DNA of 48,932 nucleotides from a virus. The position numbers and the translations under genes were made by a program. The stretch's first letter is position 1, and each line of letters starts with the position of its first letter. The DNA is taken from the UHGV virus genome UHGV-1350838, one strand, 5' to 3'. Shown piece by piece: positions 1 to 48,932 of this stretch. The notes beneath the pieces are model-generated. The model did no database searches. It was not told the origin of the DNA and saw nothing but the letters and a program-made list of their open reading frames with translations.

Positions 1-54
1 TGCGGGTTGTTGTTCTGCGGGTTCTGTTCTTCGTTGACATGAGGTTGCCCCGTA
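1..54. repeat. Left arm of a perfect 54-bp inverted repeat (partner 236..289); 1..50 equals lambda right-arm sequence in forward orientation
   Basis: Reverse complement of 1..54 is identical to 236..289 on direct reading; the last 4 nt (cgta) are shared with the start of the reverse-complemented right cohesive end. Confidence 0.9.
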
Positions 55-90
55 ACCTGTCGGATCACCGGAAAGGACCCGTAAAGTGAT
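51..90 (-). other. cos: Lambda right cohesive-end region (cosQ side); cosN overhang and cosB not present in window
   Basis: Sequence cgtaacctgtcggatcaccggaaaggacc is the reverse complement of the lambda right terminus ...GGTCCTTTCCGGTGATCCGACAGGTTACG. Confidence 0.8.
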
Positions 91-235
91 AATGATTATC
101 ATCTACATATCACAACGTGCGTGGAGGCCATCAAACCACGTCAAATAATCAATTATGACGCAGGTATCGTATTAATTGATCTGCATCAACTTAACGTAAA
201 AACAACTTCAGACAATACAAATCAGCGACACTGAA

Positions 236-289
236 TACGGGGCAACCTCATGTCAACGAAGAACAGAACCCGCAGAACAACAACCCGCA
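236..289. repeat. Right arm of the 54-bp inverted repeat (native lambda copy)
   Basis: Identical to reverse complement of 1..54. Confidence 0.9.
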
Positions 290-3060: not shown

Positions 3061-3367
3061 CTTCTACTCCGGCTTTTTTAGCAGCGAAGCGTTTGATAAG
3101 CGAACCAATCGAGTCAGTACCGATGTAGCCGATAAACACGCTCGTTATATAAGCGAGATTGCTACTTAGTCCGGCGAAGTCGAGAAGGTCACGAATGAAC
3201 TAGGCGATAATGGCGCACATCGTTGCGTCGATTACTGTTTTTGTAAACGCACCGCCATTATATCTGCCGCGAAGGTACGCCATTGCAAACGCAAGGATTG
3301 CCCCGATGCCTTGTTCCTTTGCCGCGAGAATGGCGGCCAACAGGTCATGTTTTTCTGGCATCTTCAT
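3044..3367 (-). CDS. S: Holin S carrying the Sam7 amber codon (TAG at 3201..3203, minus strand)
   Basis: ATG-AAG-ATG dual start at 3367/3361; the frame is interrupted by one TAG in the context CGCCTAGTTC, which is why no full-length ORF appears in the track. Confidence 0.85.
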
Positions 3368-3770
3368 GTCTTACCCCCAATAAGGGGATTTGCTCTATTT
3401 AATTAGGAATAAGGTCGATTACTGATAGAACAAATCCAGGCTACTGTGTTTAGTAATCAGATTTGTTCGTGACCGATATGCACGGGCAAAACGGCAGGAG
3501 GTTGTTAGCGCGACCTCCTGCCACCCGCTTTCACGAAGGTCATGTGTAAAAGGCCGCAGCGTAACTATTACTAATGAATTCAGGACAGACAGTGGCTACG
3601 GCTCAGTTTGGGTTGTGCTGTTGCTGGGCGGCGATGACGCCTGTACGCATTTGGTGATCCGGTTCTGCTTCCGGTATTCGCTTAATTCAGCACAACGGAA
3701 AGAGCACTGGCTAACCAGGCTCGCCGACTCTTCACGATTATCGACTCAATGCTCTTACCTGTTGTGCAGA

Positions 3771-5329: not shown

Positions 5330-5513
5330 CTCTTTCACTCCATCCGCGATGAACCATGAGAACGTCGTTGACGATGGCGTGCATTTTCCCGTCTTTATCA
5401 TCAACGTATTTTCTGACCGTACCGCGACTACATTTCAGTCTGCGTGCTACTTCTGTCTGATTTCCGTATGTTTCAACGAGCATGTCTGGAATGGTTTTTA
5501 CTGAGAACGTCAT
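5307..5513 (-). CDS. ninH: NinH
   Basis: 68-aa ORF in the lambda nin region position. Confidence 0.8.
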
Positions 5514-6124
5514 GCGGCCTCACTTCTGCTATTTCGCAGGTCTTTGAGTTTCTGTTGGTACTCTGCCTTGATCGCCTTGCACTCTTCGATAGTCCAGCGA
5601 TGGCGGTTATGGTTTGATTCGATTTCGTCTACTGCTTCCTGCCCGATGCGGCTAATCAGTTCGACGCGATACGGAACGAGATTTCCGCTTTTGTGCTGGT
5701 TGCACACCACGCATTGCTTGTGAATATTGCGTTCATTAAATCGGAGTTGAGGTGCCGCAGCAGTTGTCCGGTAATGTCCGGCATCCCACTGAGCAGACGT
5801 GAGCGTTCCGCACGAGATACATGGTAAGTCGCGGTCTCTTTCTCTGATGAAGGCGTTTACGGCTTGTTGGGCTTGTTTAATCCAGTAACTGCGGGGCTTT
5901 AAGGCGAGTTTTCGAATCTTAAGTTTATCTTTCTGTTTCTGCTCCTCTCGTCGTCGTTTCTTCTCTGCTGCTTTTTCCGCTTTTTCGCGTTCTTTACTTC
6001 GTCGTTCGAGTGCTATCTTGGTTCCACACTCTGGAGAGCACCACCACTGATTAGCGAATGCAGGGTGAAACCATTCCCGGCATTCATCGTTTTTACATCG
6101 TCTTCGCGCTGGTTTAGCCATCAT
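5510..6124 (-). CDS. ninG: NinG (Rap) recombination-promoting nuclease
   Basis: 204 aa; Cys-rich; lambda nin order. Confidence 0.85.
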
Positions 6125-10311: not shown

Positions 10312-11326
<1,015 letters not shown>

Positions 11327-33780: not shown

Positions 33781-34421
33781 TTGTCGGTGTACCTCTCTCG
33801 TTTGCTCAGTTGTTCAGGAATATGGTGCAGCAGCTCGCCGTCGCCGCAGTAAATTGCGGCGTGATTCGGCACTGATGAACCAAAACAGCACAGCAGCACA
33901 TCGCCCGGCTGTGCCGCTGACAACGGCACCTGATACAGCCCCGTCGCCTCCAGATTATCCAGATAGAGATTCTGGCCGTTACGCCACCAGTCATCCTCAC
34001 GATGAAAGTCCGGCATCTCAATCCCCGCCAGATGATAAGCATCCCGGAACAGTGTGTAACAGTCCGTCACACCGTGCTCAAAGCGCCGCCCGGTGAGATG
34101 CGGCACACAGCGGAACTTATGAATCGTCCCCCGGCAGACCAGCCACCACGGCAAATCACTCTGCACCTGCAGCCGCCGGTCGGCCTCACTCAGCCAGGGC
34201 AGACCACCGGGGTGGCTGTGGACCAGCGCCACAATCTCACCCTGCATTTCTGCCTGCAGCCAGTCTTCCGGCGACATACGGAAATACGCCTCCGGCTCAC
34301 CGGAGATATTCACGCAGGGGAAATATCTTTCCCCCTCCGGCGTGCTTACCACGAAGCCGCACGACTCCGCTGGCGCACATCGCCGGGCGTGCGCCAGAAT
34401 CGCTGATTCTGTCTGTGTCAT
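33678..34421 (-). CDS. K: Tail tip assembly protein K (long form; classical 199-aa annotation starts internally at 34277)
   Basis: 247-aa ORF; JAMM motif HSHPGGLPWLSEAD plus C-terminal NlpC/P60-like Cys/His; ATG 6 nt after the L stop. Confidence 0.8.
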   Translation of the reverse strand: MTQTESAILAHARRCAPAESCGFVVSTPEGERYFPCVNISGEPEAYFRMSPEDWLQAEMQGEIVALVHSHPGGLPWLSEADRRLQVQSDLPWWLVCRGTIHKFRCVPHLTGRRFEHGVTDCYTLFRDAYHLAGIEMPDFHREDDWWRNGQNLYLDNLEATGLYQVPLSAAQPGDVLLCCFGSSVPNHAAIYCGDGELLHHIPEQLSKRERYTDKWQRRTHSLWRHRAWRASAFTGIYNDLVAASTFV

Positions 34422-42474: not shown

Positions 42475-43062
42475 TTAAACGATGCTGATTGCCGTTCCGG
42501 CAAACGCGGTCCGTTTTTTCGTCTCGTCGCTGGCAGCCTCCGGCCAGAGCACATCCTCATAACGGAACGTGCCGGACTTGTAGAACGTCAGCGTGGTGCT
42601 GGTCTGGTCAGCAGCAACCGCAAGAATGCCAACGGCAGCACCGTCGGTGGTGCCATCCCACGCAACCAGCTTACGGCTGGAGGTGTCCAGCATCAGCGGG
42701 GTCATTGCAGGCGCTTTCGCACTCAATCCGCCGGGCGCGGTTGCGGTATGAGCCGGGTCACTGTTGCCCTGCGGCTGGTAATGGGTAAAGGTTTCTTTGC
42801 TCGTCACATCCTCATAACGGAACGTGCCGGACTTGTAGAACGTCAGCGTGGTGCTGGTCTGGTCAGCAGCAACCGCAAGAATGCCAACGGCAGCACCGTC
42901 GGTGGTGCCATCCCACGCAACCAGCTTACGGCTGGAGGTGTCCAGCATCAGCGGGGTCATTGCAGGCGCTTTCGCACTCAATCCGCCGGGCGCGGTTGCG
43001 GTATGAGCCGGGTCACTGTTGCCCTGCGGCTGGTAATGGGTAAAGGTTTCTTTGCTCGTCAT
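42475..43062 (-). CDS. D: Decoration protein D carrying an in-frame tandem duplication (195 aa versus the usual 110)
   Basis: [11 protein letters not shown]...TFRYEDV occurs twice in succession, then the normal C-terminus [24 protein letters not shown]. Confidence 0.9.
42551..43060. repeat. Perfect direct tandem duplication, 2 x 255 bp, inside D
   Basis: 42551..42805 is identical to 42806..43060 on direct comparison; boundary ambiguous by 1 nt. Confidence 0.9.
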
Positions 43063-43071
43063 AAACATCCC

Positions 43072-43677
43072 TTACACTGGTGTGTTCAGCAAATCGTTAA
43101 CGGCATCAGATGCCGGGTTACCTGCAGCCAGCGGTGCCGGTGCCCCCTGCATCAGACGATCCAGCGCAGTGTCACTGCGCGCCTGTGCACTCTGTGGTGC
43201 TGCGGCCAGAATGCGGCGGGCCGTTTTCACGGTCATACCGGGGGTTTCTGCCAGCACGCGTGCCTGTTCTTCGCGTCCGTGAGCCTCCTCACAGTTGAGG
43301 ATCCCCATAATGCGGCTGTTTTCTGCCGCAACCGCTGCGGTGATCTGCGCGTTCACGTCCGGCTGCGCCGCGCTGGCGTTCTCGCCCTCCGTCGCTGGCA
43401 CCACGTCAGTAACGTCAGCCTGCGAAGCAGTGGCTGAAACAGTTGTTGATTGAGTCTCTTTGGTCATTCGCCCTCCTGAGAGACGGGATTTACGTGCATC
43501 CAGTGCATCACGCATGACGGTGATCGCATCGGTGCTGTTAACAAGTTCATCAGCCAGTCCGGCATCAATGGCCTCCTGACCGCTGTACACTGCAGCCTCG
43601 GTATCCAGCACAACCTGCACGGACAGGCCGGTATATGCCGACACCTTCTGCGCAAACATCTGGCGGGTTGCGTCCAT
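43072..43677 (-). CDS. nu3: Scaffolding protein Nu3 (in-frame internal start within C)
   Basis: 201 aa from MDATRQMFAQKVSAYTGL, same frame as C. Confidence 0.6.
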   Translation of the reverse strand: MDATRQMFAQKVSAYTGLSVQVVLDTEAAVYSGQEAIDAGLADELVNSTDAITVMRDALDARKSRLSGGRMTKETQSTTVSATASQADVTDVVPATEGENASAAQPDVNAQITAAVAAENSRIMGILNCEEAHGREEQARVLAETPGMTVKTARRILAAAPQSAQARSDTALDRLMQGAPAPLAAGNPASDAVNDLLNTPV

Positions 43678-44371
43678 CCGGGACTGCAGTGTCTCCCGGA
43701 CGTCATCCGGAAGATGGCTGTAGGGGTTGCCATCCACCTTATGGCTGCCGCTGTAAATCAGCGTGATTTCCACACCCTGTTTCTCCAGCGCAGCACCGTA
43801 ATTACTGTGAGCCATCATGACGCCGATGGAGCCTGTCCGGGCGGTCTGCGTGACCAGACGCCGGGAGGCGGCACTGGCAAGCAACTGACCTGCACTGCAG
43901 TTCATGTCGTTGGCAAGCGCCCATACCGGTTTTATGTCACGCACACGGGCGATGATGTCAGCGCAGTCAAATGCCCCCGCCACCATCCCGCCGGGCGTGT
44001 CCATATCGAGCAGAATGCCGTCCACCATCGGATCGCTGGCAGCCTGTTGCAGACGGGCGATAATGCCGTTGTAACCGGTCATCCCCGAGTACGGCTGCAG
44101 CGCCCGCGTCCGGCTGACCAGCGTGCCGGACACCGGCAGCACGGCGATGCCGTTCATGACCTGATAACTGCGGGCCTGTCGTGGTCCGTCATCATCACCG
44201 GATAATGCCAGCGTCGCGAGTGCCTCCTGGGCAGTCAGGCTGTCGCCGGACACCGCATCCGTCAGGCTGCTGATCCCAAGCTGGCCTGCAAGCGCACAAA
44301 AGAAAACCCGCGCATAGGCGGGTTCAAGCATCAGCGGCTCATTAAAGGCCATGCTGGCAATATGCGGGAGA

Positions 44372-44391
<20 letters not shown>
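43072..44391 (-). CDS. C: Head maturation protease / scaffold C
   Basis: 439 aa with GTG start at 44391 (TAELRNLPHIASMAF...); overlaps the B 3' end by 20 bp. Confidence 0.9.
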
Positions 44392-48378
<3,987 letters not shown>

Positions 48379-48404
<26 letters not shown>

Positions 48405-48924
48405 TCAGCAACCCCGGTATCAGTTCATCCAGCGCGGCTGCTTTGTTCATGGCTTTGATGATATCCCGTTTCAGGAAATCAACATGTCGGTTTTCCAGTT
48501 CCGGAAAACGCCGCTGCACCGACAGGGGGAGCCCGTCGAGAATACTGGCAATTTCACCTGCGATCCGCGACAGCACGAAAGTACAGAATGCGGTTTCCAC
48601 CACTTCAGCGGAGTCTCTGGCATTCTTCAGTTCCTGTGCGTCGGCCTGCGCACGCGTAAGTCGATGGCGTTCGTACTCAATAGTTCCTGGCTGGAGATCT
48701 GCCTCGCTGGCCTGCCGCAGTTCTTCAACCTCCCGGCGCAGCTTTTCGTTCTCAATTTCAGCATCCCTTTCGGCATACCATTTTATGACGGCGGCAGAGT
48801 CATAAAGCACCTCATTACCCTTGCCACCGCCTCGCAGAACGGGCATTCCCTGTTCCTGCCAGTTCTGAATGGTACGGATACTCGCACCGAAAATGTCAGC
48901 CAGCTGCTTTTTGTTGACTTCCAT
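48379..48924 (-). CDS. nu1: Terminase small subunit Nu1
   Basis: 181 aa MEVNKKQLADIFGASIRTIQNWQEQGMPVLRGGGKGNEV. Confidence 0.95.
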
Positions 48925-48932
48925 TGTTCATT

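Follow-up and report, generated by a model that had tools for sequence, protein, structure and literature searches.

An inverted repeat at the right end of a bacteriophage lambda record as a probable library chimera of the cohesive end, truncated in a k = 55 assembly graph

Introduction

The viral record UHGV-1350838, the whole of which was analysed and is referred to here as the window (48,932 nucleotides), opens with a perfect inverted repeat that involves the right terminus of bacteriophage lambda. The best explanation is that the window is ordinary laboratory lambda cI857 ind1 Sam7 virion DNA, recovered as a short-read de Bruijn-graph contig, and that the inverted repeat is non-biological, being the product of a library chimera at the cohesive end followed by truncation in a graph with k = 55; we give the two together a probability of about 0.78. 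This explanation is supported by the fact that the whole window is lambda, by the use of the cut terminus at the junction, by a start that fits k = 55, by the landing of the junction on a unique 8-nt site and by junctions that are private to this record. The original prediction, made from the sequence alone, described the repeat and considered a contig-end fold-back artefact to be plausible, with a real fold-back rearrangement or a construct boundary as the alternatives.

Results

All of the bases in the window are accounted for by the lambda reference NC_001416, and a blastn comparison revealed no vector, adaptor or foreign sequence. The orientation is the reverse of the reference, except at positions 1–54. 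The window is made up of three collinear blocks, in which positions 51–42806 correspond to lambda 48502 down to 5748, positions 42805–45689 to lambda 6004 down to 3120, and positions 45689–48932 to lambda 3426 down to 183. The rearrangements aside, there are five differences between the window and NC_001416, the alleles being read from the codons. Four are substitutions on the minus strand, namely an amber codon at residue 56 of S (W56amber, TGG to TAG, position 3201), A15T in NinH (position 5471, also read as a codon), A67T in cI (GCA to ACA, position 10811) and E118K in cI (GAG to AAG, position 10964). The fifth is an additional G near position 34287 (lambda 14266), in the L–K intergenic region directly upstream of K.

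We take A67T in cI to be the cI857 allele (A66T in the numbering of the mature protein), E118K to be ind1 (Glu117Lys in the same numbering) and the amber codon in S to be Sam7, which together presumably make up the genotype of commercial lambda DNA. These three codon changes place the window with lambda cI857 ind1 Sam7. The same five differences are, we assume, those in the supplier's list relative to J02459 (14266 +G, 37589, 37742, 43082 and 45352), and a search of the literature for these coordinates gave no match. Lambda cI857 Sam7 DNA is sold commercially and serves as a sequencing spike-in (PMC8218415).

The window is 48,932 nt long compared to approximately 48,370 nt expected, an excess of about 560 nt that is there because the window contains two perfect tandem duplications. 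Together with the fold-back end these bring the number of structural anomalies in the record to three. At all three junctions the joined sites are 185–306 nt apart in lambda, and the microhomology is between 1 and 8 nt.

A repeat search identified positions 1–54 as the perfect reverse complement of positions 236–289, with all 54 nt paired and a spacer of 181 nt, exactly the arms and spacer of the original prediction, and no other inverted repeat of at least 24 nt is present anywhere in the window. The first 54 positions match lambda 48264–48317 by blastn against NC_001416, in the orientation opposite to the rest of the window. Position 51 is lambda 48502, the last base of the mature right terminus, which agrees with the proposal that the terminus is joined at this point, and CGTA at positions 51–54 is common to both of the joined segments. 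The left arm is formed by an inverted extra copy of lambda 48264–48313 at positions 1–50 (plus strand), the sole non-collinear sequence at the right-end side of the window, together with positions 51–54. It is followed by the final 185 nt of the mature genome (lambda 48502 to 48318) at positions 51–235 on the minus strand, in which positions 55–235 make up the 181-nt loop. The natural copy of the arm (lambda 48317–48264) then occupies positions 236–289 (plus strand); it is collinear with the genome and has the acceptor site at its start.

This part of the window also contains a 64-residue open reading frame similar to ylcI/ynfO at positions 250–444 on the plus strand. The matching stretch is annotated elsewhere as belonging to the YlcI/YnfO family, and no CDS is listed for it in NC_001416. 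The inverted copy at positions 1–50 covers the ribosome-binding region and the first 40 nt of this reading frame.

The left-end cos partner had been reported as missing from the window, and this is the case. The cohesive-end sequence GGGCGGCGACCT has no exact match in the window, where its single match with one mismatch, at position 28474, is at the level expected by chance, and lambda 1–182 is also absent. The blastn map and the search for the cohesive-end sequence both show that the window is neither a packaged linear genome nor a cos junction, as had been argued. It is also not the genome of a phage with genuine terminal inverted repeats or hairpin telomeres, as both arms lie at one end and the gene content is that of lambda.

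The length of the arm had been noted to equal k − 1 for an assembly with k = 55. The window opens on a 55-mer that lambda lacks, the first k-mer to span the junction, and any shorter k-mer taken from the same start (k ≤ 54) is ordinary lambda. A toy de Bruijn graph was generated from the linear lambda right end and one fold-back chimeric read, and was then compacted. At k = 55 this gave a unitig identical to positions 1–289 with inverted ends of 54 nt, and at k = 77 it gave a unitig of 333 nt that reached past the window start. The start at the first novel 55-mer and the toy compaction bear out both the k − 1 relationship and the choice of a contig-end fold-back artefact as the leading reading. 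The window has two properties of a de Bruijn hairpin-loop artefact, as it starts at the first junction k-mer with an arm of k − 1, and its arms are perfect with one of them (236–289) collinear.

The 54-nt arm marks the point at which the path through the graph runs back into used sequence in reverse complement, and so the arm itself carries no biological information. As a point against the explanation, an overlap of k − 1 fits the output of Velvet, ABySS, IDBA and Minia, while SPAdes or MEGAHIT would yield 55. A de Bruijn contig contains only k-mers that came from reads, and chimeric reads with the 50|51 junction must therefore have been present. The part played by the assembler is limited to the truncation at 54 nt; the 50 junction-spanning 55-mers are not its invention.

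The junction at 50|51 reads ...GAGGTTGCCC|CGTAACC... in the window, and the normal lambda right end, either filled in or joined at cos, reads ...GGTTACGGGGCGGCGACCT. In the lambda orientation the junction becomes ...GGTTACG|GGGCAACCTCATG..., and the filled-in or annealed right end ...GGTTACG|GGGCGGCGACCT. An 8-nt sequence, TACGGGGC, is common to the two; it lies at positions 47–54 as read on the minus strand, and is composed of the right-end TACG and the GGGC of the cohesive-end fill-in. The unfilled terminus shares just 4 nt with the acceptor segment, CGTA at positions 51–54. The original prediction that a 4-nt CGTA is shared by chance was therefore correct as to the sharing of CGTA, but not as to a match of only 4 nt by chance, as 8 nt are shared with the filled-in end. 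Within the window TACGGGGC occurs at the junction and at positions 236–243 and nowhere else, so that the 8-mer across the cos nick has this acceptor as its only second copy there. A rough estimate puts the likelihood of an 8-nt match by chance within approximately 300 nt at 0.005. These observations suggest that the cohesive end switched strands in vitro under the guidance of microhomology. The join is as found in inverted chimeras made in vitro by polymerases or end repair, being inverted with an offset of 185 nt and having a short microhomology, of 4 nt for the bare end or 8 nt for the filled-in end, with an acceptor that is unique in the window.

The donor of the fold-back is the terminase-cut end, which is found only in mature virion DNA, and the event must therefore have taken place after packaging. 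The product has no left cos and cannot be propagated. When the single-stranded 3′ terminal 250 nt was folded it proved no more stable than shuffled sequences (z = 0.03), and in the minimum-energy fold the 3′ end is not paired with the acceptor; a spontaneous hairpin as the favoured structure was rejected on these grounds. As there is no thermodynamic preference for the fold, the event should be rare and seen only after amplification or at very deep coverage. Very high depth is a condition under which graph assemblers retain spurious edges.

The first of the two tandem duplications is a perfect, in-frame duplication (2 × 255 nt) of codons 2–86 of gene D, at positions 42550–43059 on the minus strand (lambda ~5750–6004). 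The resulting reading frame encodes a D(1–86)–D(2–110) fusion of 195 amino acids from the D start codon, or 197 amino acids as listed. The junction, ...GAGGATGTG|ACGAGC..., is located at the TG of the ATG start codon of D and has a microhomology of 2 nt (TG), in addition to an imperfect match of GGATGTG with GGATGT(TTA)TG. This imperfect homology may offer a mechanical reason for the position of the junction at the start codon. The second is a perfect, in-frame duplication (2 × 306 nt, 102 codons) within the portal gene B, at positions 45383–45994 on the minus strand (lambda ~3121–3426). It extends the reading frame from 533 to 635 amino acids, and its junction, ...ATTAATGAC|TATCTGG..., has a microhomology of 1 nt. 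Both duplications would be in frame by chance in one case out of nine. A portal gene with an internal duplication of 102 codons is unlikely to be carried by a viable clonal stock. Against an artefact, the start of the D duplication coincides with the start codon of D, and in this respect the duplication might resemble a selected or engineered variant.

The three junctions were searched for in public collections. The fold-back junction had no match in IMG/VR, JGI metagenomes, 185,579 GTDB species genomes, GenBank phages, PLSDB or complete E. coli genomes. The D junction had none in IMG/VR or JGI metagenomes, the B junction had none in IMG/VR or GTDB genomes, and an exact-sequence look-up of the duplicated D and B proteins gave no record of either. 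The natural lambda right-end 29-mer, which served as the positive control, was found in 66 IMG/VR contigs, 65 of which continue into the normal cos junction (...AGGTCGCCGCCC) and one of which ends exactly at the terminus. The fold-back thus does not recur in independent samples across the six collections, and a normal cos is present in 65 of the 66 IMG/VR contigs, as would be the case for a chimera made in vitro.

Judged by sequence matches, lambda control DNA would seem to be commonly found in public assemblies under other names. The record for “Campylobacter phage CJLB-4” (MW057783.1, 48,361 nt) is 100% identical to lambda over the stretches compared, and by coordinate arithmetic its left end is 81 nt and its right end 61 nt short of the lambda termini, so the window is not alone in having lost terminal bases. 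In PLSDB, 48.5-kb “plasmids” assigned to Stenotrophomonas maltophilia (NZ_CP104294.1), Paenibacillus sonchi (NZ_CP068597.1) and Salmonella (NZ_CP082339.1) agree with the right end of lambda throughout the 400 nt used for the comparison. “Plasmids” of approximately 1.2–6.9 kb, most of them about 3.6 kb, from S. aureus, Acinetobacter, Klebsiella and E. coli are 100% identical to the right end of lambda from window position 65 onwards. These small records are probably a nanopore control amplicon.

At its other end the record was predicted to stop at about lambda 183, and blastn places position 48932 at precisely this coordinate. The final segment (positions 48879–48932, minus strand) stops 8 nt upstream of the Nu1 start codon, and the missing 182 nt include the left half of cosN and cosB. 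Inspection of lambda 1–300 revealed no convincing microhomology or repeat through which a second fold-back could explain the stop. Our guess is that coverage fell off near the physical end, possibly made worse by a strong hairpin at lambda ~110–170.

Discussion

We propose that the donor was the 3′ end at the mature right terminus, ...GGTTACG, which would have switched template during library preparation or amplification. This recessed 3′ end would first be extended by up to 4 bases on its own overhang, probably to ...GGTTACGGGGC, and could then fray and re-anneal to GCCCCGTA on the same-sense strand 185 nt upstream, on either the same or a sister molecule. The landing place would be the only other TACGGGGC/GCCCCGTA site. 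Extension from here would copy back along the acceptor strand and generate inverted, or “fold-back,” chimeric molecules. In the graph, the junction k-mers would connect the last 185 nt of the genome with the node at 236–289 in reverse complement, giving a hairpin-shaped loop that the assembler would walk once before halting at its re-entry into used sequence, to leave an inverted arm of k − 1 = 54 nt. The tandem duplications may be events of the same type in direct orientation, in which a chimeric back-edge would form a cycle that is traversed once and so gives two copies. We infer the in vitro origin of the junction reads, the enzyme step responsible for them and their minority status among the reads.

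Similar molecules have been described from two kinds of sequencing library. In MDA more than 85% of chimeras are inverted with an intervening deletion, and these are mostly intramolecular and primed on 2–21 nt of complementarity (PMC1855051). The fold-back is like these chimeras (Lasken & Stockwell 2007, PMC1855051) in being inverted, with an offset here of 185 nt, in having its partners on the same molecule or in the same neighbourhood, and in priming from a 3′ end on a short complementarity, which is 4–8 nt in the window. The difference lies in the donor, which here is the natural cohesive end of a phage, while in MDA it is a displaced nascent strand. In libraries made with end repair, single-stranded sticky ends anneal to short inverted sequences and are then filled in, a process captured in the PDSM model, which was described for human DNA fragmented by sonication or enzymatically (PMC10908179). 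As in this model, the chimeric read would be in part the original strand and in part its inverted complement. However, the sticky end in our case is the 12-nt cos overhang of lambda, and a single junction is seen. A paper on fold-back artefacts in long reads (PMC12870357) offered nothing of use on the mechanism.

The form of the repeat can also be compared with repeats at other contig and genome ends. A k − 1 arm at k = 55, perfect arms and a loop traversed once are as found in de Bruijn hairpin loops or spurious cycles, whereas the familiar direct terminal repeats of k-mer length in circular genomes differ in that the repeat here is inverted and present at one end only. The inverted repeat touches the genome end, as do the inverted terminal repeats of protein-primed phages and the hairpin telomeres of the N15 type, but both of its arms are at one end, 181 nt apart, with none at the other end, and lambda has neither a terminal protein nor a protelomerase. 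Tools that call inverted terminal repeats compare the two ends of a contig, and the repeat in the window would therefore go uncalled.

An explanation that is purely computational or editorial is unlikely, although it fares best among the alternatives. In this explanation there were no junction reads, and the end was produced by a mis-join, scaffolding, polishing, manual editing or deliberate manipulation, the duplications having arisen likewise. It would account for a record that was matched in none of the collections searched, either by junction or by exact protein, for the presence of three tidy and perfect anomalies in lambda sequence that is otherwise free of errors, and for duplication lengths that are both exact multiples of 3. 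However, the k-mers of a de Bruijn contig are all derived from reads, and arbitrary editing predicts neither a start at the first novel 55-mer nor a microhomology of 8 nt at a unique acceptor.

The same perfection of the repeat, at a position that is biologically meaningful, could be read as the mark of a lambda that was rearranged in vivo, its right end having snapped back and been extended, either after injection or in the course of replication, to give a hairpin-capped molecule or a head-to-head inverted dimer. The D and B duplications would then be genuine in the stock, which would suit the in-frame status of both, and the genome, at about 49.1 kb with the missing 182 nt restored, would be packageable. 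The packaging limit of lambda is approximately 105% of wild type. We regard this combination as improbable, because the use of a terminase-cut end means that the event postdates packaging and leaves no left cos for repackaging, and a fold-back molecule is not clonally inheritable. The genotype cI857 ind1 Sam7 is moreover that of DNA obtained by lysogen induction, with a sequence that is otherwise as expected; the portal protein would probably not tolerate its duplication; the other lambda or lambdoid sequences searched contain none of the three junctions; and the arm is exactly k − 1 in length.

It is more doubtful still that the fold-back was simply a real DNA species, formed either spontaneously in virion DNA during storage or in vivo once the DNA had been injected, with the duplications as genuine variants. 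The recessed 3′ end at the right end would in that case gain 4 nt, slip 185 nt inwards to the unique TACGGGGC site and copy back. If this were true, the sample would have contained hairpin-ended or head-to-head lambda molecules.

The boundary of an engineered construct or cloning vector, for example a lambda vector arm or a gpD display derivative, is very improbable, even though lambda has been heavily engineered and the D duplication runs from codon 2 of D. Platforms for gpD display do exist, and the paper that describes them mentions no duplication or tandem arrangement (PMC13119297). The construct boundary suggested in the original prediction is unsupported, as every base of the window is lambda and blastn detected no polylinker, stuffer or marker. 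A truncated D(1–86)–D fusion combined with a duplicated portal segment serves no known design, and we found no published or deposited construct map with these exact junctions. Naive concatenation of read pairs was rejected by reasoning, since it would give many junction positions and no 8-nt microhomology.

Conclusions

The record has the appearance of a slightly oversized lambda whose end is unusual and whose D and portal proteins are lengthened, while in our preferred explanation, a cohesive-end library chimera truncated at k = 55, it is control DNA with three chimeric junctions. In a database it could pass as a variant of lambda, as a phage whose termini are unusual, or as a source of novel capsid or portal proteins, and the importance of the finding is one of quality control only, with a quality flag on the record as its outcome. 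The lambda cohesive end appears to be a defined donor for microhomology-guided chimeras, with 8 nt of homology and a unique acceptor, and the chimera that it forms would be a reproducible test case with which to study artefacts of library preparation in spike-in data.
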